This document shows, in pieces, positions 29,210 through 53,427 of a DNA stretch of 58,714 nt. This stretch comes from Candidatus Woesearchaeota archaeon (GTDB taxonomy: Archaea > Nanobdellota > Nanobdellia > Pacearchaeales > GW2011-AR1): contig CAYXTB010000001.1 of assembly GCA_964468255.1 (NCBI GenBank), positions 1-58,714 of the forward strand. Reading direction: 5' to 3'. Position 1 is the stretch's first letter, and each line of letters starts with the position of its first letter. The notes beneath the pieces are model-generated. The model had not been told where the DNA came from and made no database searches. It worked only from the letters and a program-made list of their open reading frames with translations. Position numbers and translations under genes: made by a program.

Positions 29210-29293
29210 GCGGGGATGCCGGAGCGGTCAAACGGGCGACGTTAAGGCCGTCGTAGCTTAGTGCTTGCGAAGGTTCGAATCCTTCTCCCCGCA
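29210..29293 (+). tRNA. class II tRNA (long variable arm), tRNA-Leu; anticodon reads AAG by canonical numbering
   Basis: Acceptor GCGGGGA/TCCCCGC, T arm GAAGG-TTCGAAT-CCTTC, anticodon stem CGACG/CGTCG with loop TTAAGGC, a 17-nt variable arm, and discriminator A. No encoded CCA. Confidence 0.8.
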
Positions 29294-31508: not shown

Positions 31509-31611
31509 GCGCGATTAGTTAAATGGCAGAATAGCTGGTTTCCAAAATATAATGACTAATAGGCTATATTGAAACAACCAGCGGACACGGGTTCGATTCC
31601 CGTATCGCGCA
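31509..31611 (+). tRNA. intron-containing tRNA, most likely tRNA-Gly (UCC); Trp (CCA) is a less likely alternative
   Basis: Acceptor GCGCGAT/ATCGCGC, D arm GTTA-AATGGCA-GAAT with A14, G18G19 and A21, and T arm ACGGG-TTCGATT-CCCGT. The anticodon stem GCTGG/CCAGC encloses 39 nt, that is a 7-nt loop TTTCCAA plus a ~32-nt intron at about 37/38. Discriminator A. Confidence 0.75.
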
Positions 31612-35187: not shown

Positions 35188-35922
35188 GTGAAAAAGGTGA
35201 AACTGAATCTTTATGAGCATGAATTAAGAAAGAATAAGAACTCAATTATAGAGATATTTGGGCTTCCAAAGTCAGGGAAAACAAGCCTGATGAAAGAGCT
35301 TAAAAGCAGAGGATTTAATGTTGCGCTTTCGAAATACCAGAGGAATCCAAACAATCCTGAAGACAGGAATGTTGTTAAAACAGAATCAACTCTAAAAAAA
35401 ACTTTATTCTTCTTAAGGCATTTTTTGATGCATCCTTGGAAATCTATTTATTTATTTTACAAGCTAAACAGCAACTGGATTATTATTCCAGGATTAAATG
35501 GCATTGACTATATTAAAATAGGCATTATGAGAAACAAATACCTTGCTGCCGTTCTTGGAAGATATTATCTAGTAGAAAAGATGAATGAAAAAATTTTTAT
35601 TGATGAATTTATTTTCCAGAGTTTGTTTATGATTCTTCAGAAAAAGTCAGATGAAAAGGAAATAAAAAGAGTTTTGAGATGCCTTCCTGAAGCTTATAAG
35701 ATACTTGTTATTGAAATAGATAAAAAAGAAAGGGAAAGAAGGATGAGAAAAAGCATCTCTGAGGGGCAGACCATAATATTAAAAAATGAGTATATAAAAG
35801 ATAGAGATAAAAATCAGACTTTCAATTATGATATTATAAAAAGAATCATGGATAAGGAATATGGGCCTACTAAGAAGATGAGCAAAAAGGATTTGTTTAA
35901 ATTAAAATATTCTGGCGAATAA
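35188..35922 (+). CDS. P-loop NTPase / kinase-like protein (paralogue group 1 of 4)
   Basis: 244 aa with a GTG start and the Walker A motif GLPKSGKTS near the N-terminus. Confidence 0.6.
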   Translation: MKKVKLNLYEHELRKNKNSIIEIFGLPKSGKTSLMKELKSRGFNVALSKYQRNPNNPEDRNVVKTESTLKKTLFFLRHFLMHPWKSIYLFYKLNSNWIIIPGLNGIDYIKIGIMRNKYLAAVLGRYYLVEKMNEKIFIDEFIFQSLFMILQKKSDEKEIKRVLRCLPEAYKILVIEIDKKERERRMRKSISEGQTIILKNEYIKDRDKNQTFNYDIIKRIMDKEYGPTKKMSKKDLFKLKYSGE

Positions 35923-36068
35923 TTATCTCCAATTACTCATTACCTATCGTTATTATAATACGTTATACTTAACCATCTATATTTATACATCATAATTATT
36001 TACGATGCGAAAAACAATATGAAAAGGAGAAGCATATTGTTTAAATAGCCTTGATTTTACCTAAAAAA

Positions 36069-37469
36069 ATGCAAAAAACCATTATATTAGGGGCAGGGCC
36101 TGCAGGGCTTGCAGTCGCCTATAAGATTTCAGAAGAAGGCAAAGAATCGTTAATTATTGAAAAGGAAAAGAGAGTTGGCGGGCTTTCTAAGTCATTTAAA
36201 TATAAGGGATTTACTTTTGATATAGGCCCACATTTATTCAAGACAAGAAATAAAGAAATAACTGCGCTCTGGGATGTAATGTCAAAAAAGAAATATGCTG
36301 ATAATAAACATGCGCCTGCAATGCTTTACAATAAAAAAGTATATGAAAGCATGACTGATATTATCTATAGCCTTCCAAAACTTAAATTTCTTGCTGCTGC
36401 TTTAAGCACACTTTCTGCAAAAATATTTGATAAGAAAATTAATTCTGGAGAAGATTGGATATCTGCAACAAGAGGCAGGATTATTTATAAAAAATTTTAC
36501 AAACCGAGAGAAGAAAAATTCTGGGGAACGAGCCTGGATAAAATAGATAAAGAATGGTATGAAAAAAGATTCGGAGAGCATAAATTAAAAGGCTTATTTG
36601 CAGGATTCAAAAACAGGATTCTCGGAAAATCTGGAAATAATAGAGCAATAGACACAACATATCATCCTCAAAAAGGGGCTGGAAGCATGTATGAGGCACT
36701 TGCTTCCATTATAAAGAAAAGAAAAAAAAGCAGGTTTATTTTCAATTCTGTTCCTGAAAAGATAAAACATAAAGGAAAGAAGATAAAATCAATTATTATT
36801 AGAAATTTAAAAACTGGCAGATTAAGAGAGATTAAGGCAGGAGAATTAATATCAAGCATTCCTATAATGGAATTAATTAAAAAGCTTGAGCCAAAAGCTC
36901 CGGAAGAAATACTTGAAATCTGCAAAGAATTAAAATATAGGGATTTAATTCTGGTTAATTTAATTGCTGAATTAAAAGGAGAAATGAAACATAGCTTCTT
37001 TAATGTTTATTCAAATGATATTAAGGCATTTAGAATAACGAATTTTGAGAATCTTTCTGAAAAAATGGGAAACGGGACAAAAATGAAGCCAATATGCATT
37101 GAATATAATTGCCTCAAAAATGATTTCTTATGGAATATGAATAAAAAGAAAATTATAGAAATGGCAAAGGAAGAGCTGGAAAAAATTGGATTTACAAAAA
37201 AAAACAAGATAAAGAATGGCTTTGTAGTTAAAATTGAGAATGCCTACCCAATACACTCAATTGGCTTTCAGGAAAAAACTAGGAAATTAAGGGAATATTT
37301 AATGAGATTTGAGAATTTGCAGAGCATTGGCAGAAATGGAGTATTTACTTATAATCAAATGAGGCATTCAGTTGAATCAGGATTAAGGGCAGGGGAAAAA
37401 GCCCTTGGAATAAGAAAAGATTTTGGAAAAATAGAAACAACTGATGAGGGAAGGGATGTTCTGGATTGA
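36069..37469 (+). CDS. FAD/NAD(P)-dependent oxidoreductase (amine oxidase / UDP-galactopyranose mutase-like fold)
   Basis: It has the Rossmann dinucleotide motif IILGAGPAGLAVAY...IIEKEKRVGG. The start was moved to the ATG at 36069 because the track ORF starts at a TTG at 36051. Confidence 0.75.
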   Translation: MQKTIILGAGPAGLAVAYKISEEGKESLIIEKEKRVGGLSKSFKYKGFTFDIGPHLFKTRNKEITALWDVMSKKKYADNKHAPAMLYNKKVYESMTDIIYSLPKLKFLAAALSTLSAKIFDKKINSGEDWISATRGRIIYKKFYKPREEKFWGTSLDKIDKEWYEKRFGEHKLKGLFAGFKNRILGKSGNNRAIDTTYHPQKGAGSMYEALASIIKKRKKSRFIFNSVPEKIKHKGKKIKSIIIRNLKTGRLREIKAGELISSIPIMELIKKLEPKAPEEILEICKELKYRDLILVNLIAELKGEMKHSFFNVYSNDIKAFRITNFENLSEKMGNGTKMKPICIEYNCLKNDFLWNMNKKKIIEMAKEELEKIGFTKKNKIKNGFVVKIENAYPIHSIGFQEKTRKLREYLMRFENLQSIGRNGVFTYNQMRHSVESGLRAGEKALGIRKDFGKIETTDEGRDVLD

Positions 37470-37508
37470 GTAAAGAGATAAATTTAAAAGTTTAAGATAG
37501 GAAGCAAG

Positions 37509-38639
37509 ATGATGATAAACTGCGGGAAATTTTATAAAGCACTTATAGATAGAAAGATAGAGTTTTTTACAGGAGTTCCTGATTCTTTGTTAAAAGATAT
37601 ATGCGCTTACATAACTGATAATACTCCTAAAGAAAGAAATATTATTGCTGCAAATGAGGGAGGAGCAATTGCCCTTGCTTCTGGATATTATTTAGCAACT
37701 GGAAAAATGCCTTTGGTTTACATGCAGAATTCTGGACAGGGAAATTCCATCAATCCTTTAGCTTCTTTAACAGACAAGGAAGTTTATAGCATTCCAATGC
37801 TGTTAATGATAGGATGGAGGGGAGAGCCGGGAAAGGAAGACGAGCCGCAACATAGAAAACAGGGCAGGATTACTTTAGATTTATTAAAAGTCCTTGAAAT
37901 TCCATATGAAATATTGTCTGATAAGAGCAATGGAATTGAGGATTACATTGACCGGGCGGTTACTCATATGAAAAAGAAAAACAGCTCTTATGCGTTCGTC
38001 GTGAGAAAAGGAACATTTGAGTCGTATGCTTTGAAAAATGACGGGGAGGAAAGGTACAAATTAACAAGAGAAGAAGCAATAAAATTGGCTGCCGAAAAAT
38101 TGGATGGAAGAGAAGTTATAATTTCTACAACCGGCATGATTTCAAGAGAGCTTTTTGAATATAGAAAGGGCAAAAATCAAAATTTGGGTAGAGATTTTTT
38201 AACAGTGGGATCAATGGGGCATGCTTCCCAGATAGCTCTCGGCATTGCGTTATCAAAGCCAAACAGAGAAGTTTATTGTTTTGACGGGGATGGCTCTGTA
38301 ATAATGCATCTTGGCTCTCTTGCTGTTATCGGAGAAAAAAAGCCGAGAAATTTTAAGCATATAGTTTTTAATAATGGAGTGCATGATTCAGTTGGCGGTC
38401 AACCAACTGCCGGCTTCTCAATAAATATCCCTGAAATTGCAAAGGCATGTGGTTACAAAGAAACATGGAGCGCTGAAACAGCCGAAGAAGCTGAGGAAAA
38501 GATAGAATTGCTGAAGAAAGCTGAAGGCCCTTCTCTTCTTGAAATAAAGGTCAGAAAGGGGCATAGAAAAAATCTCAGCAGACCAGACAAGAGCCCAGAG
38601 GAAAATAAAAATAATTTCATGAATTTCCTTGAAGAATAG
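37509..38639 (+). CDS. aepY: phosphonopyruvate decarboxylase
   Basis: 376 aa. It has the N-terminal FFTGVPDSLLKD block and the ThDP motif GDGSVIMHLGSL...VFNNGVHDSVGGQPT, both typical of Ppd. It is flanked by the AEP transaminase gene and lies near the PEP mutase gene. Confidence 0.85.
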   Translation: MMINCGKFYKALIDRKIEFFTGVPDSLLKDICAYITDNTPKERNIIAANEGGAIALASGYYLATGKMPLVYMQNSGQGNSINPLASLTDKEVYSIPMLLMIGWRGEPGKEDEPQHRKQGRITLDLLKVLEIPYEILSDKSNGIEDYIDRAVTHMKKKNSSYAFVVRKGTFESYALKNDGEERYKLTREEAIKLAAEKLDGREVIISTTGMISRELFEYRKGKNQNLGRDFLTVGSMGHASQIALGIALSKPNREVYCFDGDGSVIMHLGSLAVIGEKKPRNFKHIVFNNGVHDSVGGQPTAGFSINIPEIAKACGYKETWSAETAEEAEEKIELLKKAEGPSLLEIKVRKGHRKNLSRPDKSPEENKNNFMNFLEE

Positions 38640-38787
38640 CTAATTCAGCAAATATTATATCTTAATTATCTGCAGTTCTCTAACATTATCTTCATTAAGT
38701 TAATTATTGTTTCTAATTTCAGATATAATTCCTAGTTTGCTCTTAAAGATAGGGCAAGAGAATAAATATATTTATAAAAGGAGCAAA

Positions 38788-39936
38788 ATGCTGAATAAGA
38801 TGGAACCTCTGGAATTAAAAGTTAAGAGAAATATATTGTTAAATCCTGGGCCTGGAACAACGACTTACAGCGTTAAAATGGCTCAATTAGTTCCCGATAT
38901 CTGTCATAGAGAGAAGGAATTCTGCCTTCTTCTTGATGGTATAAGAAAAGACCTTGTTAAAATAGCCTCTAAAAGCCAAGAGGATCATACTGCTGTTCTT
39001 TTTGCAGGTTCTGGGACTGCTGCTGTTGAATCAGTTATAATATCTGCCATACCCGATAATAAAAAACTTCTTGTCATTAATAATGGGGCGTATGGAGACA
39101 GAATTGCAAAAATAGCCAGAACATTTGGAATAAATTTAGAGGAGCAAAAATATTCTTGGAATCAAGGGCCTGATTTGGAGAGAGTAAGGAGAGCTGTAAG
39201 TGAAAGTGGAATTGAATATATCGCGGCAGTCCATCATGAAACAACCTCTGGATTGCTAAATCCTATAAGAAAGCTCGGAGAAATAGCAAAGGCAAATGGA
39301 TGCAAATTTATTGTAGATGCAATGTCCAGCTTTGCAGGGATTGCTTTTAAAATGGAAGAGAATAATATAGATTACTTAATTTCCTCTGCAAACAAATGCT
39401 TACAAGGAATGCCTGGCATTTCATTTGTTATAGCAAAAAAAGATGAAATTGAAAAATTAAAAGATGGAAAAAAGAAATGTTTTTATCTTGATTTGCATGC
39501 GCAATATGAATCCTTGGAAAAACAGCAGCAAATGCGCTTTACTCCTCCTGTTCAAACTGCCTATGCATTGAGAAAGGCAATAGACGAGTTTTTTGAGGAA
39601 GGAGCTGAAAGAAGGCAGGAAAGATATTTCAAAAGCTGGCAGACTCTTACATCTGGATTGCATGAAATAGGATTTAAGCTTTTAATTGAAGATGAAAGGA
39701 TGCAGTCAAGAATATTGACTTCTGTAGTTGAGCCTAAGAATCAAGAGTATGATTTTGATAGACTGCATGATAGATTATATGAAAAAGGATTTACTATTTA
39801 TCCAGGCAAAATTGGAAACATGAATACATTTAGAATAGCAAATATGGGAGCAATAGATTATAGAGATATTGAAAACTTCCTTTCTGCTTTAAAAGATTCT
39901 TTAAAATGTATGGGAATTGAGAAATTAGTTTATTAA
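38788..39936 (+). CDS. phnW: 2-aminoethylphosphonate:pyruvate aminotransferase (class V aminotransferase)
   Basis: It has NPGPGTTT near the N-terminus and the PLP-lysine block SSANKCLQGMPG. The start was set at the ATG at 38788, which is preceded by AAAGGAG. The track ORF begins at a TTG at 38707. Confidence 0.8.
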   Translation: MLNKMEPLELKVKRNILLNPGPGTTTYSVKMAQLVPDICHREKEFCLLLDGIRKDLVKIASKSQEDHTAVLFAGSGTAAVESVIISAIPDNKKLLVINNGAYGDRIAKIARTFGINLEEQKYSWNQGPDLERVRRAVSESGIEYIAAVHHETTSGLLNPIRKLGEIAKANGCKFIVDAMSSFAGIAFKMEENNIDYLISSANKCLQGMPGISFVIAKKDEIEKLKDGKKKCFYLDLHAQYESLEKQQQMRFTPPVQTAYALRKAIDEFFEEGAERRQERYFKSWQTLTSGLHEIGFKLLIEDERMQSRILTSVVEPKNQEYDFDRLHDRLYEKGFTIYPGKIGNMNTFRIANMGAIDYRDIENFLSALKDSLKCMGIEKLVY

Positions 39937-39977
39937 ACTTTCATAATATTTATATATGGAGCTTTGCAGGAAGAAAA

Positions 39978-40838
39978 ATGGAAGCACAAGGAAAAACGCG
40001 GGAAGAAGAACAGAAAGATTTTTTTAGGGAGAATTGCTATTTGCTCGTGAGAGATTTTTTCTCTGAAGAACAAGTCAGGTTATTAAGAAGATATGCTGAT
40101 GAAATGGGCGAGCAATCGCAAAGAGTATTGAATGCTGCCCCACAATCAAGTATGGATATTAATTCTTTTCAAAATGCATTTAAAGGATTAATAGTTGTGC
40201 CAGAAAAAGAAAAGCCTAATCAGGTATGCAGAGTAGAGGATATGCTTTCGTATAGCAGAGGCCTTTATCATTTGGTCTTGGGAAGCGTTACTCCTTTTAT
40301 TTCAGATGTTCTTGGGGAAGAATATGTTCCATTCAAGGATAAGCTTAACTTCAAATGGCCTGGAGGAGGAGCTTTTAAGCCTCATCAAGATTATCCTGCT
40401 TATGACTTGTTTGGGCCGAAAGAGCATGTAACTGCTATGATAAGCATTGATCCATCAACTTTGGAAAATGGCTGCCTTAAAGTTGCCCATAATTACAGGA
40501 AGCCTTTAATAGCAAATGAAAGAATAGAGCAAAAATCTTTATTGCTGGGAAAACCAATAATACCATATAATGGAGATACTATGGAGCAAGAATTTGTTGA
40601 TGTGTTTGATTGGAGGCCTATTGCAACAATGCCAAGGGATTTATTAATATTTGATTCCTATGTTCCTCATGCATCTGAGGCAAATGCCAGCAATTTCCCA
40701 AGAAGAGCAATGTTCATAACGCACAACAGGCTTGCTGAAGGAGAATGGAGAAAAGCATATTACGATTTGAAGAGGAGAGACCCCTTAAATCCTAAGTTTC
40801 ATTTTGCAAATCCAACTACAAAGAGAGAGGAAAAGTAA
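39978..40838 (+). CDS. PhyH-family Fe(II)/2-oxoglutarate dioxygenase
   Basis: 286 aa with an HQD facial-triad start (KPHQDYPAY) and a distal His (YVPHASEAN). It sits inside the phosphonate cluster, where PhnY*-type AEP hydroxylases belong to this family. Confidence 0.7.
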   Translation: MEAQGKTREEEQKDFFRENCYLLVRDFFSEEQVRLLRRYADEMGEQSQRVLNAAPQSSMDINSFQNAFKGLIVVPEKEKPNQVCRVEDMLSYSRGLYHLVLGSVTPFISDVLGEEYVPFKDKLNFKWPGGGAFKPHQDYPAYDLFGPKEHVTAMISIDPSTLENGCLKVAHNYRKPLIANERIEQKSLLLGKPIIPYNGDTMEQEFVDVFDWRPIATMPRDLLIFDSYVPHASEANASNFPRRAMFITHNRLAEGEWRKAYYDLKRRDPLNPKFHFANPTTKREEK

Positions 40839-40865
40839 TAAATAGTGTTTTTTTCTTTGATTTAA

Positions 40866-41393
40866 ATGAAAGGAAAATTAATAGTTTTTGAGGGAGCTGA
40901 CGGCTCTGGAAAAACATCTACAATAGATGCTCTAATGCCTCTGTTGGAAAACCATGGATTTTCTGTTAAGAGAATTTATTTTAGCTCTTTATTGAGAAAA
41001 AGGACTATATTAAGAAGGGCCTTTTCACTTTTTGGAAAGCTGCTCCTGGCTTATTTCAGTTTAATTACCGGAAAATTAATTTTAGCTGATAGGTATATTT
41101 ATTTAACATTCAGGAAAAATGAAATATTGAAAAAAATAGTAAGAACTTTATATCCTAGGGCTGACAAGGTTTTTGTTATGAAGGCAAGCCCTAAAGTATT
41201 AAGAAAAAGGAGGGAGATTTATGAGGGAATTGGGAATAAGCTTTTAAAAAGAAAGGCTGAATTGCAAAGCATTAAAGAGATAAATGAATTGTATAGAATC
41301 TACGAATCTGTACCTAAAGCAATAGTAATCAATATGGAAAAGCCGAGAAAATCAAATTTAAATATTATAATAAATGAAATAAAACAATTATAA
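40866..41393 (+). CDS. thymidylate-kinase-like P-loop kinase (paralogue group 2 of 4)
   Basis: 175 aa with the blocks LIVFEGADGSGKTS, LADRYIYLTFRKN and VFVMKASPKVLRKRR. Confidence 0.7.
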   Translation: MKGKLIVFEGADGSGKTSTIDALMPLLENHGFSVKRIYFSSLLRKRTILRRAFSLFGKLLLAYFSLITGKLILADRYIYLTFRKNEILKKIVRTLYPRADKVFVMKASPKVLRKRREIYEGIGNKLLKRKAELQSIKEINELYRIYESVPKAIVINMEKPRKSNLNIIINEIKQL

Positions 41394-41395
41394 AA

Positions 41396-42283
41396 ATGAG
41401 AAATAATAACACTTTATCTAGAGTTTTTGATGCTTTTAATGGAAAAAAGGCCAGTTATATTGTTAGGACTAGCTATGAAAAATTGCCTTACTCATTGAAT
41501 GGGAAAGATGTTGATTTGCTTGTTGCAAGAGAGGATTTTCTAATTGTGAGAGAAATTTTGAAAAAAGAGGGATTTATTTTTTATCCTTTTACAGAGCCGC
41601 ATTATCTCTATTATTTCTATGATTCAAAATTAGGATTAATAGAGATTGATATTTTGCTTGCTTCTAAAATTCCAAAAAGAAAAAAGTACAGGAATTTTTA
41701 TATACTGAAAGAAGAAAAGAAATATAATTATAATAAAAGCTTTCCCTATAAATTAAAAACAGGAATAAAAAGAAAACTACACTTTTTATTTAAGGGCAAG
41801 CTTGTGTGCTTTATAGGTCCTGATGGCTCTGGAAAAACGACATCTATGAATGCTGTTTTTGATTCATTGAAAAATTTTCCTGTTAGAAAAGAAAGAATGC
41901 TCTTTGGGGCTTTAAAACCTTCTCCAATCCAGAGAGCATTGAGCAGAATTGGAAGCATAATTAAGGTTTATATGAATATATTTTCAGGAAAACTAACTTT
42001 GACTGACCGCTATTTATATCTAACTTTCAGGAAAAGTCATCCTATCTTTAGAAAGATTTTCAGGGCAATTGCACCGAAGCCGAATATTGTTTTTGTAATG
42101 AAAGCTTCTTACTCTTTGCTAAAGAAGAGAAGAAAAGATGATGTATTAGATGAGAAGACAGTAAATGATTTGTATAGATTATTTGAGAAAATTAAAAATG
42201 CCGAATGGATTGATACTTCTAAAAATTACAAGAAAAATATTGATTTTATGATTAAAAGGGTTCTTGATTTATATAGAAGATAA
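41396..42283 (+). CDS. two-domain protein: N-terminal nucleotidyltransferase-like region plus Tmk-like P-loop kinase (paralogue group 3 of 4)
   Basis: 295 aa. The N-terminus has GKDVDLLVAREDF. The C-terminus has FIGPDGSGKTT, LTDRYLYLTFRKS and VFVMKASYSLLKKRR, closely parallel to 40866-41393. Confidence 0.65.
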   Translation: MRNNNTLSRVFDAFNGKKASYIVRTSYEKLPYSLNGKDVDLLVAREDFLIVREILKKEGFIFYPFTEPHYLYYFYDSKLGLIEIDILLASKIPKRKKYRNFYILKEEKKYNYNKSFPYKLKTGIKRKLHFLFKGKLVCFIGPDGSGKTTSMNAVFDSLKNFPVRKERMLFGALKPSPIQRALSRIGSIIKVYMNIFSGKLTLTDRYLYLTFRKSHPIFRKIFRAIAPKPNIVFVMKASYSLLKKRRKDDVLDEKTVNDLYRLFEKIKNAEWIDTSKNYKKNIDFMIKRVLDLYRR

Positions 42284-42335
42284 ATAAAGAATTTAATTTC
42301 ATTTTATATATAAAGCCCTTACCCTTAGAAAGTAG

Positions 42336-42773
42336 ATGAAAAAGGAGACAGGAACAATAACGCCAGAAGAGACTACTAATAACATTTTAAATCTTAATTC
42401 ATTTTGTATTATAGCCACTGCATCTGAAAAAGGAGAGCCAGAAGCGGCAACTATTGAATACATGAGAGGAGATGAGTATGATTTATATTTCAAAACATTT
42501 AGTGACAGCAGGAAATATAAAAATCTCTGCTTAAATCATAGGGCAAGCATTGTTGTAAATTTTCTGCCGCATTCTTTGCAGATGAATGGTATTATTTTCG
42601 AATTAGAAGGCAACGAAAAGGAGAAGATTAAAGAAAGATTTATGAAAGAGAACGGAAAGGAAAATTGGTATAATTATCCTGAAACCAAATTTCTTAAATT
42701 TTCTCCTAATTGGATAAGGCTTTTTGTGCCAAACAAATTTTTTCCTATAAAGCAGATTATTAATAAAACTTAA
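42336..42773 (+). CDS. pyridoxamine 5'-phosphate oxidase-like FMN-binding split-barrel protein
   Basis: 145 aa. The pattern FCIIATASEKGEPEAATIEY...LYFKTFSDSRKYKNL..N.RASIVV is typical of the PNPOx-like family. Confidence 0.65.
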   Translation: MKKETGTITPEETTNNILNLNSFCIIATASEKGEPEAATIEYMRGDEYDLYFKTFSDSRKYKNLCLNHRASIVVNFLPHSLQMNGIIFELEGNEKEKIKERFMKENGKENWYNYPETKFLKFSPNWIRLFVPNKFFPIKQIINKT

Positions 42774-42822
42774 AGCATTATTTAGCTATCATTATAATTA
42801 TCTTATACACTGATGTAATTGT

Positions 42823-42861
42823 CAGCAATTCTCTTGTGCTCAAGGTCAAGTTCCTTGACAT
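42823..42861. repeat. hairpin repeat element, copy C (solo terminal module)
   Basis: CAGCAATTCTCTTGTGCTCAAGG-TCAAG-TTCCTTGACAT matches the right end of copy B (31745-31778). It also matches the reverse complement of the left end of copy A. Confidence 0.55.
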
Positions 42862-42948
42862 GATAAATTACCTATAAATAAACTGAAAGGATTGAACTAT
42901 AAGATAAAGTACAGGTATATTTAAAAAAGGCTCTATTTCTTGAATTAA

Positions 42949-43764
42949 ATGGATAATAAATTAAAAGAATTGGTTATAAAAGAATATGACAGCGATTTTG
43001 CCAAAAAGTCGTATGAGAAGATTATAAAAGAAGGGCTTTTTGAGAGCGAGAAATATTTTATTGGCAAGTATTTCAAGAAAAAAGAGAAGGTTCTTGACAT
43101 AGGATGCGGGACAGGAAGAGCATCTATCCAGTTGCATAAGCTTGGATATAAAATGACTGGCATTGATATAGTTAAAAGCATGATTGAAAAAGCCAAAGAG
43201 ATTGCTAAAAGAAATAAGCTGAAAATAAAATATAAGGTTGGAGACGCAACTTCATTGCAATTTAAAGACAAAGAGTTTGATTATGCCTTATTCACATATC
43301 AAGGATGGACTAAGATTCCAGGAAAAGAAAACAGGCAAAAAGCCTTGAATGAGGCATTTAGGGTATTAAAGAAGGGAGGAATATTTTTATTGACTGCAAG
43401 AAGAAGAATATGGACTGGAAGGCATTTATTTATATGGCTCTGGAACTGGATAAGATTTTACATATTAAAAAGAATTGGATTTAAAATCTGGGAAAAAGAT
43501 TTCGGCGACAGAATGTGGATTGATAAAGGATTCATCAAATGGCTAAAATCCAGGATTTTGAAGAGCATCGGATTTAAAATTGAGGATAATTATGCAAGAT
43601 ATAATACAAATCAATATTACCATATTCCTTCTGTTGAGGAAGTAAAAAGGCAGATAAGAGCTTCTGGATTTAAAATTTTAGAGATAAATAACAGGATAGA
43701 AAGGCAAAAATGGCAGAAAGCCAATAAGCATAGCCCATTATTTTATGTCTGCGAGAAAATTTAA
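42949..43764 (+). CDS. class I SAM-dependent methyltransferase
   Basis: It has the motif I block VLDIGCGTGRASIQL and the post-I acidic residue (GIDIV). The C-terminus contains an internally repeated GFKIWEKDF / GFKIEDNY segment. Confidence 0.8.
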   Translation: MDNKLKELVIKEYDSDFAKKSYEKIIKEGLFESEKYFIGKYFKKKEKVLDIGCGTGRASIQLHKLGYKMTGIDIVKSMIEKAKEIAKRNKLKIKYKVGDATSLQFKDKEFDYALFTYQGWTKIPGKENRQKALNEAFRVLKKGGIFLLTARRRIWTGRHLFIWLWNWIRFYILKRIGFKIWEKDFGDRMWIDKGFIKWLKSRILKSIGFKIEDNYARYNTNQYYHIPSVEEVKRQIRASGFKILEINNRIERQKWQKANKHSPLFYVCEKI

Positions 43765-45479
43765 ACTTTATTAAAATACTGGCTTAAAAGAACAAAATCA
43801 TTTTCATTATGAAGCTCAAGCCAGCCCTTATGAGTCTCAATGAAATTTATTTTGAAGCCTCTATATATCATTTCCTGGAAAATGTCTGTAAAATCAGCTT
43901 TATGAATTGATTCTACTTCATGAAAAGAGCCTTTATGATTTAAAATGCAGTCTTCATAAACCTTGATAAAATTCTTTGCTCCTTCTTCTGTAAATTTTAT
44001 AAAGCTTAAAGCTTCATGAGTTGCTTCATTTATGTCTATCTTCTTTCCTATTTTCTTTACTTCATTATTTTTTGGCTTTATCTCTCTCAAAGCAAAGGAT
44101 GATTCTTTCGCTGCAATCAAATCAAGTTCTTTATCTATATTATGCTTATGATAAGCATAAGAATTATCAGCAACTATAACAATGTCTCCTTCTGCTTTCA
44201 ATAGATTAGACATTAATTTATTATCAAAAATAATATCTGGATTAATATAAATAAAGCCCAATTTCATCTTATTTTTTGCGAGCATCATGCCGTATAAGGC
44301 ATAAGTTTCCTGCCATTTTTCATTCCTTATGTAATTAGCTCCAGGAATGTTAAACATTTCTGCCTTATAGCCAGTTACGACATTTATATCAGAAAGACCT
44401 GCTTCTTTTAGCAGATCTATTTGTTTCTGAAGCAAAGGAGTGCCATTTATTTTTACAAGAGCTTTTGGAATATCTCCTTGGTTTAATTTTACAGGAAGAA
44501 AATCGTGACCTGCTGCAGTAATTATGACTGGCAGAGAAATAGATCTTAATTTGTCTTTTTCGGTTATATCAGTAAAACCTACAATTTCAAAGACTTTCTT
44601 TAATGGAACACAGAGAGAATTCGCTTCATAAGACCTATCATTGAATAAAATTGACTCGCAAGCTTTTTCCATAGAATGATATGCTGACCTTAAAAGATGA
44701 TTGGCATGGATAACAATGTTGAAACCAAGCTCTCTCAATTCAGAATCATAAATTCTATTATATGTTGTCGGAACTGCTACTAATGGCTTGCCGAAGCCGA
44801 TTGTATTTGAAAATAGGGATTTATATCTCTTTGCGAACTCTATTATTTTCTCTGGAGAATCGTCTTTGGAATGAATCATTATTCCATCAACTCCTGCTTT
44901 TAAATAAATTTCAGCTCTTTTTAATGCATCATCTAAATCCTTGCCGGCTATAAAACTCTCAATTCTGGCAATTATCATGAAATCTCTGAATTTTTGCACT
45001 TTCTTGCCTGCTTTTATTTTTTCCGCAAATATTTTTGGATCTTCTAAATCTTGCTTTGCCCCTTGGAAAAGAGAGTTTCTTTTTGGAAATATTTTGTCCT
45101 CTATTATAACTGCTGAAACTCCTATGGCCTCCAATCTTGGAATCAAATATTCAAATTGGCTTATATCTCCTCCTGTATCGCCGTCAAATATAATTGGCTT
45201 TGAAGTGACTCTTGTAATTTGCTCTGTTGTTGATAGTCTGGAATCCATGCTGACTAGTTCCACATCTGGCATGCCTTTTGAGGCAGAATCTGTCAAAGAG
45301 GATTCCCAAAGAGCATCAAATTCTAAAGATTCAAGATCTTTTTCTATTTTGAGATCATTTGCTATTATTCCTGATAGTCCATTATGCACTTCTATTGCTC
45401 TGATAAAGCCTTTTCTATTTAATATTTCCTTCAACTTGGGTATTCTTTCAGATGATGAAATTAGGTTCTTTAATGTCAT
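43761..45479 (-). CDS. aepX: phosphoenolpyruvate mutase fused to a C-terminal nucleotidyltransferase domain
   Basis: 572 aa. The N-terminal half has EVHNGLSGIIAN and the diagnostic EDKIFPKRNS block of PEP mutase. The C-terminal half has an NTP-transferase-like start, VIITAAGHDF...PKALVKINGTPLL. Confidence 0.85.
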   Translation of the reverse strand: MTLKNLISSSERIPKLKEILNRKGFIRAIEVHNGLSGIIANDLKIEKDLESLEFDALWESSLTDSASKGMPDVELVSMDSRLSTTEQITRVTSKPIIFDGDTGGDISQFEYLIPRLEAIGVSAVIIEDKIFPKRNSLFQGAKQDLEDPKIFAEKIKAGKKVQKFRDFMIIARIESFIAGKDLDDALKRAEIYLKAGVDGIMIHSKDDSPEKIIEFAKRYKSLFSNTIGFGKPLVAVPTTYNRIYDSELRELGFNIVIHANHLLRSAYHSMEKACESILFNDRSYEANSLCVPLKKVFEIVGFTDITEKDKLRSISLPVIITAAGHDFLPVKLNQGDIPKALVKINGTPLLQKQIDLLKEAGLSDINVVTGYKAEMFNIPGANYIRNEKWQETYALYGMMLAKNKMKLGFIYINPDIIFDNKLMSNLLKAEGDIVIVADNSYAYHKHNIDKELDLIAAKESSFALREIKPKNNEVKKIGKKIDINEATHEALSFIKFTEEGAKNFIKVYEDCILNHKGSFHEVESIHKADFTDIFQEMIYRGFKINFIETHKGWLELHNENDFVLLSQYFNKV

Positions 45480-45605
45480 TTTTTGTAAAAATTCAATATT
45501 ATGAGGTTTTATAAATATATATGAAAGATGATTCCATAGACTTGTATTATCTGTTACAATGATTCTTGTTTGGGATATTAGAGGGCAATCATAAATGTTT
45601 ATAAA

Positions 45606-46382
45606 ATGCCTTTTATTGATTTTTCTATGGATAATTCAAAGTACCATGTCTTAATTTTAGCTGCTGGAAAAAGCACAAGATTGGCTCATTTAACTAGAGG
45701 AAAGCCAAAATGCTTTTTGGAAATAGGAGGAAAAAGCATAATTGGACGCATGCTTGACTGCCTTAGTGAAAGAGGAATTAAGGAAGCGACTATAGTTATA
45801 GGCTATATGAGTGAATTTTTTATGAAAACCCTTGGAAATAAATACAAAAATATTGATATTGATTATATAGTAATGGATGATTATGCGACTACTCTGCATG
45901 GATGGGGGTTTTATCTTACCAAAGATAGATGGCAAAAAAGTAAAAAGCCAGTTATCTTTATGGACGCAGATAATATTTTTGATCCAAAATTAATAGATAA
46001 GCTTTTGGAAGAAAATAATGATAATGTTTCCTTAATTGATAACAATCCAGAGAACAAGAATACTGAAGAAGAGCTTGTTATTGGAGATAAAGAAGAAATA
46101 AAAGGCTTTGAAAGAGGAATCTTTTCAAAAGATAAGAAGTTCCTCGGTGAATTCGTCGGAATAAACAAATTTTCTCCTGAATTTATGGAAAACTTGTATA
46201 AGTTTATGGACTCTTTAGGAGATAAAATTAAGATCCTTAAATATGAAAAAGTCTTTGATAAATTCATTAATTTCACCAAAAATAAAATTAATTATTTAAA
46301 AACCGGCGGATTGAAATGGGTAAATGTTAATAATGAATATAGCTTTGAAAAAGCAAAAAAATTAGCCTTGTTTGAATTTTAA
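45606..46382 (+). CDS. sugar/alcohol-phosphate nucleotidyltransferase (LicC-like)
   Basis: 258 aa with the N-terminal ILAAGKSTRL...GKPKCFLEIGGKSII signature of the NTP_transferase family. Confidence 0.78.
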   Translation: MPFIDFSMDNSKYHVLILAAGKSTRLAHLTRGKPKCFLEIGGKSIIGRMLDCLSERGIKEATIVIGYMSEFFMKTLGNKYKNIDIDYIVMDDYATTLHGWGFYLTKDRWQKSKKPVIFMDADNIFDPKLIDKLLEENNDNVSLIDNNPENKNTEEELVIGDKEEIKGFERGIFSKDKKFLGEFVGINKFSPEFMENLYKFMDSLGDKIKILKYEKVFDKFINFTKNKINYLKTGGLKWVNVNNEYSFEKAKKLALFEF

Positions 46383-47039
46383 TTAGTATTTTCTATAGAC
46401 CCAGAACTTAAATATCCAAAAGGCGTTTGCTATTAGGCCGAATATAAATAACAGTGGCAGACTTGCAAAAAATATTGATATAGAGACCAGCCATCTTTGG
46501 ATACCATCTGTAAATCCTATAACTATTTTTCTTTTTCCAAATAATTTCTCTCTAACACTTTTTGCTATTTTATTTTTTTGCTTGAAAAAGGCAGCAGCGT
46601 AACCTGCGCTTAGGATTACCATAAACAGGCCAAACATTGCAAACAGGCCAACCCATATGTTTCCTAAAAAGTAGCCTGCAAAGAAAACAATTAGCGTGAA
46701 GCCGACTGTTCCTACAACACTGTCTAAATAAGCCCCGAAATTCCCATATTTCTTTCCCTTCTTGTAAGCATAATATCTCGCAACGTCCCCATCGCAACAG
46801 TCTAAAACGGCGGCAAGATGGACAAGAATCCCTGCAAAAATCCATTGATTTATATACATAAGATAAATAACTAGAAAATCGGCCAGAACAACTAATATAT
46901 TTACTATTATTGGCGATACTCTCAAAGAAATAAAAATCATGTTAAGGAAGATTGAAATTCTCCTGTAAAAATAATAGTCCATCCAAACCTCTGGATGATA
47001 ATCTTTTCTTAGATTTTTCAGCTCTTTGTATAATGACAT
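46383..47039 (-). CDS. CDP-alcohol phosphatidyltransferase family membrane protein
   Basis: 218 aa with multiple TM helices. It has DCCDGDVARY...G...D, matching the D-G-x2-A-R...G-x3-D-x3-D family motif. Confidence 0.8.
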   Translation of the reverse strand: MSLYKELKNLRKDYHPEVWMDYYFYRRISIFLNMIFISLRVSPIIVNILVVLADFLVIYLMYINQWIFAGILVHLAAVLDCCDGDVARYYAYKKGKKYGNFGAYLDSVVGTVGFTLIVFFAGYFLGNIWVGLFAMFGLFMVILSAGYAAAFFKQKNKIAKSVREKLFGKRKIVIGFTDGIQRWLVSISIFFASLPLLFIFGLIANAFWIFKFWVYRKY

Positions 47040-47102
47040 AACTCAATCTATTAATATGCATTTATAAGCATTGGCATTTTTACCCGTAATAGACATTTAT
47101 TT

Positions 47103-47807
47103 TTATATTTCTGGTTTATAAAATATTAAATTACATTTTGATGGGTAACCGTTTTTATATCTTAATGACTTCTGCAAAAATCCATAAAAACCATAGTCCT
47201 GTAACAAATCAAATATTTTCCCAAATGAAGTAATACCTTTATGTGCTCTTTGCAAATGCTTTTCTATTATAATAACATCAATTTCTTTTAATCTGTTCTG
47301 AAAACCTTTCAGTGCTTCATACTCTGCTCCTTCAACATCTATCTTTAACAAACATGGTTCAATTATCTTTATAGGCAAATGATCAAATCTCCTTTTATTA
47401 ACTTTTATTTTTTTAACTATTTCATTATCATAATCTATATTATGTTCAGAGTATTCAAACAAGGAGCTGTTAGCACTTCTTCTCTTATTTATATAGAATA
47501 TGCATTTGTTCTCGTCTTTATCCCATAAAGCGATTGGAAATGCCACCGCACCATATTTTTTAGCAACAGAATCGCATAAATCCTTTATAGGATCAATAGC
47601 ATAAATAAATCGCGCGTTCGGAAACAAAGATTTAAATGCTTTTATGTAAGATCCTTCATTACAACCCGCATCAATATATGTTTTAAAATCTTTTTTTGAA
47701 ATGTCTCTCGCCCATAAAATCTCAAAATAAGCGGCAGGTTTTACTTTCTTAATTAAAGATAAAATTGCCTTTGGTTGTTCTATCGCATTAATTATTTTTT
47801 GTTTCAT
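47103..47807 (-). CDS. FkbM-family methyltransferase
   Basis: It has the blocks IDAGCNEGSY and LLKIDVEGAEYEALKG. The start was trimmed to MKQKII (ATG 47807). Confidence 0.78.
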   Translation of the reverse strand: MKQKIINAIEQPKAILSLIKKVKPAAYFEILWARDISKKDFKTYIDAGCNEGSYIKAFKSLFPNARFIYAIDPIKDLCDSVAKKYGAVAFPIALWDKDENKCIFYINKRRSANSSLFEYSEHNIDYDNEIVKKIKVNKRRFDHLPIKIIEPCLLKIDVEGAEYEALKGFQNRLKEIDVIIIEKHLQRAHKGITSFGKIFDLLQDYGFYGFLQKSLRYKNGYPSKCNLIFYKPEI

Positions 47808-47877
47808 TGTTTTAACATCTTGTTTATGACAAAATTGGAGCAAAAGGGTTTATAAAACTCTCTTTTATAATGAATGA

Positions 47878-49401
47878 ATGAAAGAAAATAAAAAGATAAG
47901 CATAGCAAATCAAGCAATAGGAAACTCTATATTAGATATTATATCCTCATTTGTACAAAGAATAGGCGGCCTGATATTTACAATTATTGTTGCAAGAATT
48001 CTGATGCCTGAAGGATTTGGAATTTATGGCCTCGCAATTTCAATAGCTTCTGTATTTATGGTTTTTGGAAAGATGGGAATTGATGAGACATTTATCAGAT
48101 ATTTCTCAGAATTTTCTAGGAATAAGAAGATGGCAAGCGCTTATTTTAAATTTATAATGAAAATTAAGTTAATTGTTCTTCTTGTGTTATTAACAATTAT
48201 CTTTTTAAGTTCGCATGTATTAGTAAATTTAGTATTTAAAAAACCAGCTCTTTTTCTTCCTCTTCTTCTCTGCGCAGGATACATGTTCATTCTCTCCATA
48301 GAAGGACTCTTTACCTCATTCTTTATAGCAATAAGGAAAATAAAATATGTTGTGTATAAAGAAAGCCTGTTCCAATTCTTAAGAATAATACTTGTTGTTA
48401 TAATGGTTGCCATATTTGTTAAAAATCCTGACATTATTAACACATTTTTATCTCTGATATTGGCTTCCATTGTTACTTTTCTTTTTGTAATATTTAAAAT
48501 AAAGGCAATGTCTCCCAATTTGTTCAAAAAAGCTGGAAAATTGGATAAAAAAGATAAAAAAAGAATAATTCACTTCTTTGGTTATTTCACATTTACTTCA
48601 ATTTCATTAGTTTTCTTTGGAAATATAGATAGTGTAATGATTGGTTATCTTATAGAAAATGCAAGTGCAATTGGATTTTACAAGGCTGCATTTACAATCT
48701 CATCAAGTATAGCCGGATTTTTAGGATTTGGAATGGTTTTATTGCCTTTATTTATTCAAAAGAAGAAGAAACTTGAATATGTTTATAATATTGTATTAAA
48801 ATATTTAATGATTCTGGCTATTCCTGCCACATTCGGTATAATAGCACTGGCAAGCCATTTTGTTGTTCTTATATATGATTATGAATATATAGAATCAACG
48901 CTGCCACTTATATTTCTTGCATTTACAATAATCTTGACTGTTTATGTAAGTTCTGTAGTGCAATTATTCCTAACAAAAGAAAAGCCACAAGGTTATTTTA
49001 AACTGCTTTTATCTGTAATTATAATAAATATTATACTAAATTATATTTTAATAACTTCTTTGTTAAGATACTCAATTATATGGGGTGTTAGTGGAGCAGC
49101 AATTGCAACTGTTTTAAGCTGGCTTATTTATGCTGTTGGAATTAATATTTTAGCAAAAAAGAAATTAGGCATAAGAACAAAGATAAGAGTTATGATTAAA
49201 CCTTTTTTCGCCTCTCTAGTGATGTTTGCAGTTATTTATCTTATAAAAAAACAATATTACGATATAAGCCTATTGTCAGGATTTCTGCTTGTAATTACTG
49301 GGGCAGTTATTTATCTTATAATTATGCTCGTAATTAAAGGTATTGTAAAAGAGGATATTTTAATATTTAGAGATTTTATTAAAAACAGTAATTTGATTTG
49401 A
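47878..49401 (+). CDS. polysaccharide/oligosaccharide flippase (Wzx-like, MOP superfamily)
   Basis: 507 aa with about 12-14 predicted TM helices. The size and hydrophobic pattern fit polysaccharide biosynthesis transporters, and the gene sits in a glycosylation cluster. Confidence 0.7.
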   Translation: MKENKKISIANQAIGNSILDIISSFVQRIGGLIFTIIVARILMPEGFGIYGLAISIASVFMVFGKMGIDETFIRYFSEFSRNKKMASAYFKFIMKIKLIVLLVLLTIIFLSSHVLVNLVFKKPALFLPLLLCAGYMFILSIEGLFTSFFIAIRKIKYVVYKESLFQFLRIILVVIMVAIFVKNPDIINTFLSLILASIVTFLFVIFKIKAMSPNLFKKAGKLDKKDKKRIIHFFGYFTFTSISLVFFGNIDSVMIGYLIENASAIGFYKAAFTISSSIAGFLGFGMVLLPLFIQKKKKLEYVYNIVLKYLMILAIPATFGIIALASHFVVLIYDYEYIESTLPLIFLAFTIILTVYVSSVVQLFLTKEKPQGYFKLLLSVIIINIILNYILITSLLRYSIIWGVSGAAIATVLSWLIYAVGINILAKKKLGIRTKIRVMIKPFFASLVMFAVIYLIKKQYYDISLLSGFLLVITGAVIYLIIMLVIKGIVKEDILIFRDFIKNSNLI

Positions 49402-49590
49402 TATTATTTTTCTGTGAGTGCATGTTAGTTTATATGTCAACTAACCAGTGATTCTTAACATTGTATCAAGGAGGAAAAATGAAGATATCTTATGTTAAAC
49501 AGAATTTAACGAGAATGTAATAACTATCAATTATGTTAAGTTTGATATTAGACTTAATATTATAGATAATTTTAAAAGGAAGTCTTTATT

Positions 49591-50370
49591 GTGAGCAGAA
49601 TGATTTTTAAGATTAGGCAGTGCTTAGAAGTGATTAGAATAATAAAAAATTTTCCTCTATATTTTGCAAACTATTTCAAACTGGTTAATAAAAAATATAT
49701 TATTTATAAGTTAAGAAATGGCATTAAATATAAAACAAGGTCTGGCACTACAGACCGAGGAATAATTAATGAGATATTTATTTATAAAGAGTATAATCCA
49801 AGAGGATTTGAAATTAAAAAGGATGATGTTGTAATAGATATTGGCGGGCATATAGGAATATTTACAATTCTTGCCTCAAAACTTGCTGAGAATGGAAAGA
49901 TATATGTTTTTGAGCCCATGCCAGAGAATTTTAATCTTCTTTTAGAGAATATCAGAATTAATAATAGAAGTAATGTAGTCGCTTTCAAAAAAGCAGTTGC
50001 TAGTAAAAATGAAAAAAAAGATCTTTTTCTCTCAGAAGGGGAAAATAAGGGAGGAAACTCATTTTATAAGAAAAATGAAAATTCTAGGAAAATAGAAGTT
50101 GAAACCTTGGCTTTTCAAGATTTTATCAAGAAAAATAAGATAAAAAAGATAGATTTTTTGAAAATGGATTGCGAGGGAGGTGAATATGACATTTTATTTA
50201 AATGCCCTAAGGAAACATTGAAGAAAATTAGCAAAATAAGCATGGAATACCATAATCTTAGCAATAAAAATAATGGCGAAAGATTAAAGGCATTTCTGGA
50301 AAAATCTGGATTTATAGTAATAAAGAAAGAATTGAGAAAAAGGGGTATGATTTATGCAAAGAGAGAATAA
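49591..50370 (+). CDS. FkbM-family methyltransferase
   Basis: It has the blocks VVIDIGGHIGIFT and FLKMDCEGGEYDILF. It has a GTG start; an alternative ATG lies at 49600. Confidence 0.78.
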   Translation: MSRMIFKIRQCLEVIRIIKNFPLYFANYFKLVNKKYIIYKLRNGIKYKTRSGTTDRGIINEIFIYKEYNPRGFEIKKDDVVIDIGGHIGIFTILASKLAENGKIYVFEPMPENFNLLLENIRINNRSNVVAFKKAVASKNEKKDLFLSEGENKGGNSFYKKNENSRKIEVETLAFQDFIKKNKIKKIDFLKMDCEGGEYDILFKCPKETLKKISKISMEYHNLSNKNNGERLKAFLEKSGFIVIKKELRKRGMIYAKRE

Positions 50371-50378
50371 CAATGTTT

Positions 50379-51389: not shown

Positions 51390-51474
51390 TTTTTTATAAG
51401 CTTAGGGCTATTTTTAAATTTAACACTTATATTTAAAAAGCAGAGATTATTAAAATTTTCATTACACAAATAAG

Positions 51475-52831: not shown

Positions 52832-53000
52832 AGTTAAATTCTGTAACTCGCTGTTTCTTATGAATAGGATATTTTTAGAATCTTTTTAGCATTGAAGGAT
52901 TCTGTTAGATTAAAAGGTAATGAACTGACTAAATAGTTATAAAAAGCCTATTGAAGCGCAGTATAAGAATCTATAAAAACTAATATTGGAAAAAGGGTTT

Positions 53001-53381: not shown

Positions 53382-53427
53382 AAGTGAATGCATAAATGCT
53401 TATAAAGCCCTGCTCTCAGGGATTTTC

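Follow-up and report, generated by a model that had tools for sequence, protein, structure and literature searches.

Phosphonate decorations of the cell surface are thought to shield cells from enzymes, phages and grazers; they are also a source for the environmental carbon-phosphorus (C-P) pool. To our knowledge, the steps that follow activation with cytidine monophosphate (CMP) are uncharacterised in any organism. Here we analysed a predicted phosphonate gene cluster at positions 35188-47039 of a 58,714-nucleotide stretch of DNA from a Candidatus Woesearchaeota archaeon (contig CAYXTB010000001.1 of assembly GCA_964468255.1; the whole stretch is called the window below) and compared it with the closest described systems. 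In the Pnt pathway of Treponema denticola, Atopobium rimae and Olsenella uli, PntC makes CMP-2-aminoethylphosphonate (CMP-AEP), and transfer to glycan is LicD-like (Rice et al., 2019; PMC6697681). The second system, 'Burkholderiales_CDP-OH', was described by Li and Horsman (2022; PMC8942020) and equals the Group 1 phosphonolipid clusters of Yu et al. Its seven-gene core encodes a fusion of phosphoenolpyruvate (PEP) mutase (Ppm) with PntC, phosphonopyruvate decarboxylase (Ppd), AEP:pyruvate transaminase (AEPT), a 2-oxoglutarate (2OG) oxygenase, a second PntC and two phospholipid-type genes, and its predicted product, a 1-hydroxy-AEP conjugate, has never been isolated (PMC8942020).

We found that the window probably carries a cell-surface 'phosphonyl tailoring' (Pnt-type) cluster, in which AEP would be made, activated with cytidine triphosphate (CTP) and attached to the surface. 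The core of the cluster is ordinary, and the cluster adds an archaeal example to the Pnt-type clusters already known for surface decoration with AEP. What is new is a ppm-linked subfamily of membrane transferases without the fourth Asp (D4) of the cytidine diphosphate (CDP)-alcohol phosphotransferase signature; with a locus-specific dioxygenase resembling PhnY*, it is the part worth pursuing. Twelve open reading frames (ORFs) lie in 35188-47039, and all those named in a first-pass annotation of this DNA were recovered at their positions. The argument rests on the following:

37509-38639, + strand: phosphonopyruvate decarboxylase (Ppd/AepY), TIGR03297, with TPP_enzyme_N and TPP_enzyme_C domains
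38788-39936, + strand: 2-aminoethylphosphonate:pyruvate transaminase (AEPT/AepZ), TIGR03301 and PRK13479
39978-40838, + strand: PhyH-family Fe(II)/2OG dioxygenase, PhnY*-like, candidate AEP C1-hydroxylase (PF05721, E 2e-17)
43761-45479, - strand: fusion of Ppm with a nucleotidyltransferase (NTase), 572 aa
45606-46382, + strand: stand-alone LicC/PntC-like cytidylyltransferase, candidate CTP:AEP cytidylyltransferase
46383-47039, - strand: membrane protein of the CDP-alcohol-phosphotransferase (CDP-AP) fold, 218 aa, candidate phosphonyl transferase (PF01066)

Like the Pnt pathway, the cluster combines an AEP core with CTP activation by a LicC-like NTase, holds a Ppm-fused and a second NTase side by side in one cluster and lies in a glycan neighbourhood. 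In contrast to that pathway, its transfer enzyme is of the CDP-AP fold and is not LicD, which is the enzyme used by the closest Ppm relatives of the window (loci L002, L004, L093 and L094). The first-pass annotation had proposed a comparison with known phosphonoglycan and phosphonolipid clusters, and this comparison identified Burkholderiales_CDP-OH as the closest described relative. Six of its seven core functions are present in the window, from which the LPG-synthase-like gene is absent. When the example on the Mycetohabitans rhizoxinica megaplasmid (L092) was aligned with the window, identity was 35% for Ppd, 35% for AEPT, 28% for the Ppm fusion and 23% (E 5e-13) for the PntC-like protein. 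The L092 oxygenase (235 aa, annotated as '2OG-Fe(II) oxygenase') had no BLAST similarity to the PhyH protein of the window, and the L092 transferase, which keeps the canonical fourth Asp (GHFYDLAAD), had no significant BLAST similarity to its counterpart. The window also differs from this system in its Wzx flippase, its glycosyltransferases and its archaeal host. Judged by its parts, the window appears to work like Burkholderiales_CDP-OH, partly from non-orthologous components and in a glycan rather than a lipid context.

In the fusion protein, the Ppm domain covers aa 16-301 (nt 44577-45434), and a LicC-like NTase domain extends from approximately aa 311 to the C-terminus (nt 43764-44549). 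The Ppm equivalog model of NCBIfam (TIGR02320) matched with 336.3 bits against a cut-off of 319.55, while the rival models of the superfamily scored 146.7 (phosphonopyruvate hydrolase), 98.9 (methylisocitrate lyase, PrpB) and 43.9 bits (carboxy-PEP mutase, CPEP mutase). The Pfam matches were PF13714 (E 3e-51) and PF12804 (E 4e-7), and the PDB matches were 5unc (E 4e-51), Mytilus Ppm 1m1b (E 1e-44) and LicC 1jyk (E 6e-11). The motif IEDKIFPKRNS fits EDKXXXXXNS, which separates Ppm from the rest of the superfamily (PMC6697681). Furthermore, all eleven active-site residues of Mytilus Ppm that were checked (W44, S46, D58, D85, D87, E114, K120, N122, S123, R159 and H190) are kept, as W58, S60, D72, D99, D101, E127, K133, N135, S136, R172 and H203, respectively, and are invariant across 23 homologues. 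By model score and catalytic residues, the Ppm domain is judged to be a true PEP mutase. Fusions of Ppm with an NTase make up about one-third of all Ppm proteins (PMC6697681), and a search with the fusion returned at least 7,997 homologues.

Ppd scored 503.2 bits with TIGR03297 (cut-off 312.5), and the sulfopyruvate decarboxylase models stayed below their cut-offs (131.1 < 221.5 for the beta/ComE-like model, 86.9 < 147.95 for the ComD-like model). The thiamine diphosphate (ThDP) motif GDGS-x24-NN starts at residue 260, and Ppd homologues were present in 58 of 85 ppm loci. AEPT scored 438.8 bits with TIGR03301 (cut-off 360.8) and 370.4 with PRK13479 (cut-off 296), and the pyridoxal phosphate (PLP)-lysine motif SSANKCLQG was found. 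Its longest ORF opens at TTG 38707; since the model match begins only at residue 43, ATG 38788 is the likely start. The first-pass annotation had claimed that all three committed steps of AEP synthesis are present, and the claim holds, with each enzyme above its NCBIfam equivalog cut-off and its motif confirmed. Neither outcome that it had named as damaging was observed: model scores and the eleven residues argue against a non-mutase or a Ppm without catalytic residues, and the equivalog-level scores of Ppd and AEPT argue against a generic ThDP enzyme and a generic aminotransferase. Three equivalog matches to consecutive steps lie within 8 kb; the pattern is therefore not due to chance.

For activation, the cluster offers two NTases. 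The stand-alone enzyme matched LicC (1jyk, E 3e-10) and the PntC-AEPT protein Tde1415 (6pd1, E 3e-9), whose PntC has been characterised in structure and kinetics, with residues 15-216 aligned to Tde1415 residues 5-198. Its motif GKSTR-x8-PK at residue 21 fits the PntC motif GXG(T/S)RX4-8PK save for a G-to-S change at position 3, and both the Arg and the Lys of the motif are kept. Substitution of this Arg or Lys lowered the activity of Tde-PntC to < 10%, and the specificity of PntC for AEP over phosphocholine is steric (PMC6697681). Homologues of the stand-alone enzyme were present in 28 of the 85 ppm loci. In the Ppm-fused domain the same motif was not found: the domain reads AAGHDFLPVKLNQGDIPK, with AAGHDFL where LicC has AAGLGTR, so that the Arg is missing and the PK is kept. 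The consensus of 23 Ppm homologues also lacks this Arg in the fused NTase, and the domain may not be a conventional cytidylyltransferase. Because the fused domain lacks the Arg of GXG(T/S)R, the stand-alone enzyme is the better PntC candidate, and we infer from these motifs that CMP-AEP formation falls primarily to it. The earlier listing of two NTases among the candidates for activation and transfer thus stands for the stand-alone enzyme, which keeps Arg and Lys and matches 6pd1, and is doubtful for the fused domain.

The candidate for the transfer step is the 218-aa membrane protein. It matched PF01066 (CDP-OH_P_transf) with 33.8 bits (cut-off 22) and aligned to AF2299 (4o6m, E 1e-6) and to IPCT-DIPPS. 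Its predicted model (pLDDT 83.2) matched AF2299 in Foldseek with a TMq of 0.72-0.73 and a probability of 1.00. The protein shares with the canonical CDP-alcohol phosphotransferases (AF2299, IPCT-DIPPS, PgsA1) the predicted helical-bundle membrane fold and the D1xxD2GxxAR...GxxxD3 part of the signature, here D80xxD83GxxAR88...G102xxxD106xxxG110; it differs from them in Gly110, which takes the place of the fourth Asp, and in an invariant Asp 26 residues before D1 (Asp54). This pair of changes was found in all 21 subfamily loci collected, and within the subfamily no variation was seen at D1, D2, G, A, R and D3. Among 166 wider relatives with D1-D3 intact, Asp54 pairs with Gly110 in 30 and with Asp110 in none, counts that come from related sequences and are not independent. 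In about 26 other relatives, His stands at the D4 position. The occurrence of Gly110/Asp54 throughout the subfamily means that the missing D4 is a subfamily property, not a sequencing accident. It suggests that the catalytic carboxylate has moved to the neighbouring, preceding helix, where the invariant and subfamily-specific Asp54 may replace the role of the fourth Asp.

This subfamily is tiny, since a search among 5.8 billion gave only 17 clusters at E <= 1e-5 and one among 1.84 billion gave only 17 representatives at E <= 1e-10, and it keeps the company of phosphonate genes. Among the loci of at least 3.5 kb, 10 of 14 have the subfamily gene beside ppm or ppd; three of the others are truncated, and the last (L110) has an NTase and Wzx only. 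The gene adjoins those for the NTP transferase, Ppd and Ppm in L089, L090, L091, L095, L108 and L109, and it occurs with Ppd and/or Ppm in L097, L105, L106 and L107. In 17 further metagenome loci, Ppd and/or Ppm was seen wherever the flank on the relevant side is long enough (L095, L097, L105-L109). The order in L089, L090 and L091 is Wzx flippase, subfamily gene, NTP transferase, then Ppd and Ppm; in these three loci Ppm is fused to a PF01467 NTase, and an aldehyde dehydrogenase sometimes replaces AEPT. In the window, as in L089-L091, the transferase gene abuts the PntC-like gene, the two being a few bases apart at most or overlapping. Thus, the subfamily is tied to phosphonate genes almost exclusively. 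CDP-OH genes of the canonical kind, with D4, were also seen in seven ppm loci, which belong to other lineages. The first-pass annotation had listed a CDP-alcohol phosphatidyltransferase among the transfer candidates; fold, PF01066 match and ppm linkage bear this out, but without the fourth Asp the protein is not a canonical member of that family.

A pathway can be proposed on this basis. The Ppm domain would rearrange PEP to phosphonopyruvate, Ppd would decarboxylate this to phosphonoacetaldehyde and so pull the unfavourable equilibrium forward, and AEPT would transaminate phosphonoacetaldehyde to AEP. At least part of the AEP pool may then be hydroxylated at C1 by the PhyH protein to 1-hydroxy-AEP. 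The stand-alone LicC/PntC-like enzyme would use CTP to form the CMP-phosphonate, from which the CDP-AP-fold protein would move the phosphonyl group to a hydroxyl of a membrane-bound acceptor at the cytoplasmic face. The acceptor would most likely be a lipid-linked glycan, assembled by the products of the nearby genes for GT4, GT9 and methyltransferases, and the Wzx flippase would export the decorated glycan for display on the envelope. A phosphonate-decorated envelope had been suggested in the first-pass annotation, and a complete AEP pathway together with nucleotidyl activation and a membrane transferase supports it. More tentatively, it is possible, well short of an even chance, that the D4-less, Asp54-bearing subfamily is a dedicated phosphonyl transferase using CMP-phosphonates, the missing step of this Pnt branch, and that it here places PhyH-made 1-hydroxy-AEP on a flipped glycan. 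If so, a host-dependent DPANN cell would gain a phosphatase-resistant surface. A phosphonate-bearing envelope could also alter the contact surface between a DPANN cell and its host. The 218-aa enzyme is a compact and testable candidate for the transfer step, and the replacement of D4 by Gly together with the new Asp gives a clear mutational hypothesis.

Several observations weigh against this pathway. The full D1xxD2GxxAR...GxxxD3xxxD4 signature is broken by Gly110; because the fourth Asp of PgsA1 is a Mg-2 ligand and the presumed catalytic base (PMC6506517), canonical catalysis by the window protein is not assured. The Ppm gene is on the strand opposite to Ppd and AEPT. The PhyH protein scored 124.7 bits with the PhnY* model, below the curated cut-off of 500; its nearest homologues, which are bacterial, reach only about 50% identity, phosphonate genes were absent from the three bacterial contexts of such homologues that were examined, and no PhyH homologue was found in any of the approximately 110 other loci fetched (ppm loci and CDP-AP-subfamily loci). 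Finally, the acceptor could be a lipid rather than a glycan, by analogy with eukaryotic CMP-AEP:diacylglycerol transfer and with the Group 1 phosphonolipid prediction.

The PhyH protein and its neighbours bear on the first alternative, that plain AEP is attached and that a glycan island carries the PhyH protein, methyltransferase, P-loop kinases, PNPOx-like protein and flavin adenine dinucleotide (FAD) protein as unrelated passengers. The neighbours are:

36051-37469, + strand: FAD protein of the PRK07208/uridine diphosphate (UDP)-galactopyranose-mutase-like group (NF005548)
40866-41393 and 41396-42283, + strand: two adjacent thymidylate (dTMP)-kinase-like P-loop ORFs with Walker A and DRY motifs
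42336-42773, + strand: PNPOx-like protein, with no specific support as a tailoring enzyme
42949-43764, + strand: class I S-adenosylmethionine (SAM) methyltransferase (PF13649, E 1e-23)

None of these proteins, PhyH included, had a homologue next to ppm in the first 85 loci, and homologues of the PhyH, PNPOx-like and FAD proteins were absent from all of the approximately 110, which for the FAD protein includes every other ppm locus examined. The contexts of the PhyH homologues without phosphonate genes also favour passengers; the JGI/NCBI name '2-aminoethylphosphonate dioxygenase' given to such homologues is based on homology only, with those same three contexts lacking phosphonate genes. The FAD protein scored 323.6 bits with NF005548, below the cut-off of 389. 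Its nearest solved relatives are UDP-galactopyranose mutases (E 1e-12); it is therefore more likely a glycan-precursor enzyme, and an assignment as a PbfB-D-type amine oxidase was rejected on the same resemblance. The methyltransferase had no specific NCBIfam assignment and resembled the methyltransferases of other ppm loci only weakly and without specificity (25-32%); it is a weak candidate for N-methylation of the amine.

On the other side, a gap of 41 nt separates the PhyH gene from AEPT upstream of it, and the next ORF follows after 27 nt, all on one strand, in a tightly packed run (Ppd, AEPT, PhyH, two P-loop ORFs and PNPOx, gaps of 2-148 nt). The only NCBIfam match of the protein is the model of methylphosphonate hydroxylase PhnY*, a phosphonate alpha-hydroxylase (NF052437, E 4e-36). 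It shares with PhnY* the PhyH fold, the iron triad (H136-x-D138 and H231) and the 2OG-binding Arg (R242), residues that are invariant in 36 homologues; it differs in its score far below the cut-off, in having no PhnZ partner and in its biosynthetic rather than catabolic setting. The predicted model (pLDDT 91.8) was closest in Foldseek to generic small-molecule hydroxylases (such as proline hydroxylase H11, EctD and GriE), among structures that include none of PhnY*. The analogous bacterial core also has a 2OG oxygenase, and homologues of the P-loop ORFs recur in CDP-OH-type ppm loci. The passenger explanation thus keeps a sizeable minority chance. C1-hydroxylation of AEP by the PhyH protein, specific to this locus, is plausible and agrees with what is predicted for the Burkholderiales core, and the protein is the sole credible one among the tailoring candidates. 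Of the tailoring enzymes proposed in the first-pass annotation, then, the PhyH dioxygenase was retained, but the FAD and PNPOx-like proteins were not, and the methyltransferase stays weak.

A second alternative, which we consider unlikely, is that the product is a phosphonolipid, with AEP or hydroxy-AEP moved from CMP onto a lipid alcohol (archaeol or a scavenged diacylglycerol-type lipid). Lipid head groups are the classical products of CDP-alcohol phosphotransferases, the second-best NCBIfam match of the transferase was archaetidylinositol phosphate synthase (41.5 bits), and the bacterial cluster that shares this set of parts has been assigned to 'Group 1 phosphonolipid' (PMC8942020). However, AF2299 and IPCT-DIPPS, the best sequence and fold matches, use soluble CDP-alcohol donors, and the constant neighbours are genes for Wzx and glycans rather than for lipids, as the LPG-synthase-like gene of the Burkholderiales core would be. 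A Polysacc_synt gene lies adjacent to or near the CDP-OH gene in L089, L090 and L091, and also in L005. As far as we know, DPANN archaea generally lack lipid synthesis, which also counts against a lipid product.

Rather less likely still is the third alternative, in which the D4-less protein is no phosphonyl transferase, being either dead or active on another CDP-alcohol of the glycan pathway, and an unrecognised enzyme attaches the phosphonate. The loss of the presumed base and metal ligand would fit it, as would the use of LicD by closely related DPANN-type ppm clusters. Yet LicD was not found in the window, and the unchanged D1, D2, G, A, R and D3 of the subfamily speak for a function that has been kept. 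In addition, the gene directly borders the PntC-like gene and recurs near ppm or ppd, and Asp54 covaries perfectly with the loss of D4.

We also scanned the window for catabolic genes (ORFs of >= 140 aa at 34-49.5 kb, >= 100 aa beyond this and >= 150 aa in the first 33 kb); PhnX, PhnZ, PhnA, C-P lyase and phosphonate transporter genes were not found among these ORFs. This result and the flanking glycan genes indicate a biosynthetic setting, that of a surface-glycan island. A cluster for catabolism or salvage of environmental AEP, or for a secreted small-molecule phosphonate, is thus highly improbable and was rejected: TIGR03301 does span biosynthetic AepZ and catabolic PhnW, and PhnY* enzymes are known from AEP catabolism, but Ppm and Ppd are biosynthetic, the catabolic genes are missing from the ORFs scanned, peptide-ligase and other natural-product genes are absent, and nucleotidyl activation, membrane transferase and flippase point to a surface conjugate.

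To the right of the cluster, the island continues with the following features:

47103-47843, - strand, and 49591-50370, + strand: FkbM methyltransferases (Pfam)
47878-49401, + strand: Wzx-type polysaccharide flippase (PF01943, E 8e-26)
50379-51389, - strand: GT9 glycosyltransferase of the heptosyltransferase family (Pfam)
51475-52260, + strand: methyltransferase (Pfam)
52247-52831, + strand: P-loop ORF, dTMP-kinase-like
52986-53381, + strand: VanZ (Pfam)
53428-54570, + strand: GT4 glycosyltransferase (Pfam)

Beyond these lie an ORF of 314 aa without Pfam match (54654-55598) and, at 55646-58291, heptose-type genes: RpiB fused to an RfaE-domain-II-like adenylyltransferase, an RfaE-domain-I-like kinase and an AraD-like epimerase. 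The relatives of the island genes fall into two lineages. Ppm (66-71%) and GT4 (60-70%) are closest to a DPANN-type cluster family that uses LicD, the GT4 being 60-70% identical to the GT4 beside Ppm in L002, L004, L093 and L094. In contrast, the CDP-OH-type family holds the closest relatives of Ppd (57-62%), the transferase (53-55%), the P-loop ORFs and several glycan genes; the third methyltransferase, the GT9 and the second FkbM gene of the flank have homologues in L090, L091, L095 and L109. The locus appears from these relationships to be a mosaic, with the Ppm of a LicD-type lineage and the Ppd/NTase/CDP-OH module of another, and its low GC content together with best relatives in two cluster lineages fits an exchanged surface-glycan island. 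GC content across the window is 0.28-0.40; in the glycan/phosphonate island (44000-54000) it is 0.275-0.32, compared with 0.33-0.40 in the core-gene half.

The LicD-type relatives L002/L003, L004, L093 and L094 (Ppm 66-72%) each have a Ppm-NTase fusion, an equivalog-level AEPT, an NTase fused to a CobD-like PLP domain and LicD. In these loci, the ThDP enzyme Ppd was not found within 10 kb; it may be encoded elsewhere, or the route may be independent of Ppd, for example by phosphonoalanine decarboxylation.

The P-loop ORFs matched thymidylate kinase by profile (2yof, E 8e-8), and the second of the adjacent pair has a weak PF14907-like N-terminal region. With paralogues at 35188-35922 and 52247-52831, four copies lie within 18 kb, and homologues were found in the CDP-OH-type loci L089, L090, L091, L095, L103 and L109. 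In a published inventory, one ppm family is flanked by a thymidylate kinase and a PF14907 NTase (PMC8942020). A defence role for the four ORFs was rejected, the PADLOC matches being marginal only.

According to surveys, about 4-5% of bacterial genomes and 1.6% of archaeal ones encode Ppm (PMC8942020). By an alignment-based scan of species-representative genomes (a single-protein scan with Ppm gave no match), we found ppm loci in Nanoarchaeota (L037 and L038), Woesearchaeota (L063), Aenigmatarchaeota (L030) and four Patescibacteria (L043, L047, L066 and L076); the closest match to the window Ppm in these genomes was 52% identical, so that the lineage of the window is not among them. Its closest homologues overall are 66-73% identical, and the nearest named ones are from 'Candidatus Parvarchaeota' (68%) and 'Nanoarchaeota' (53-56%). 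Phosphonate synthesis had been called unexpected in a reduced genome, an argument that loses force with the recurrence of ppm loci in DPANN archaea and Patescibacteria and with the existence of more than 7,900 Ppm-NTase fusion proteins; synthesis in ultra-small, host-dependent lineages is therefore recurrent. No paper that explicitly discusses phosphonate biosynthesis in DPANN archaea was found among those that could be searched, although databases already annotate the genes, and the locus adds these archaea to the likely phosphonate producers.

The stretch from Ppm to Wzx recurs in identical form on an independent 7.2-kb assembly (L001). Core genes of archaeal type lie in the left half of the window (RNA polymerase A, B and D; S7, S13, S4 and S11; EF-2; SecF/SecD). 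Together with the 103-nt tRNA described below and the named relatives of Ppm, they mark the sequence as archaeal, and the source can fairly be described as DPANN-type. A scan for sigma-70 promoters and terminators gave 73 sites compared with 69 +/- 8 in shuffled sequence; the method is ill-suited to archaea, and the result was disregarded. RNA polymerase subunit A (9416-12859, - strand) is one ORF of 1147 aa with Rpb1 domains 1 to 5, apparently unsplit, unlike the A'/A'' of most archaea, and RpoB (13306-16554) is also unsplit. A tRNA of 103 nt, presumably intron-bearing, was found by Rfam at 31509-31611 (+ strand) and missed by ARAGORN, whereas a tRNA-Leu called by ARAGORN at 29210-29293 is absent from the Rfam list at the gathering threshold. 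Two minimal-nucleotidyltransferase pairs were seen. In that at 30363-31455 (+ strand), the partner ORF 30979-31455 matches HEPN; in that at 5804-6867 (- strand), the N-terminus of the NTase is MarR-like, and no Pfam match was obtained for the partner ORF 5804-6286. An rve-family integrase lies at the left edge of the window (140-991, + strand). Finally, an ORF of 1532 aa without Pfam match (20348-24946, - strand) is next to an S8 subtilase of 821 aa that contains an Ig-like domain (16950-19415, - strand), and both may be surface or secreted proteins.

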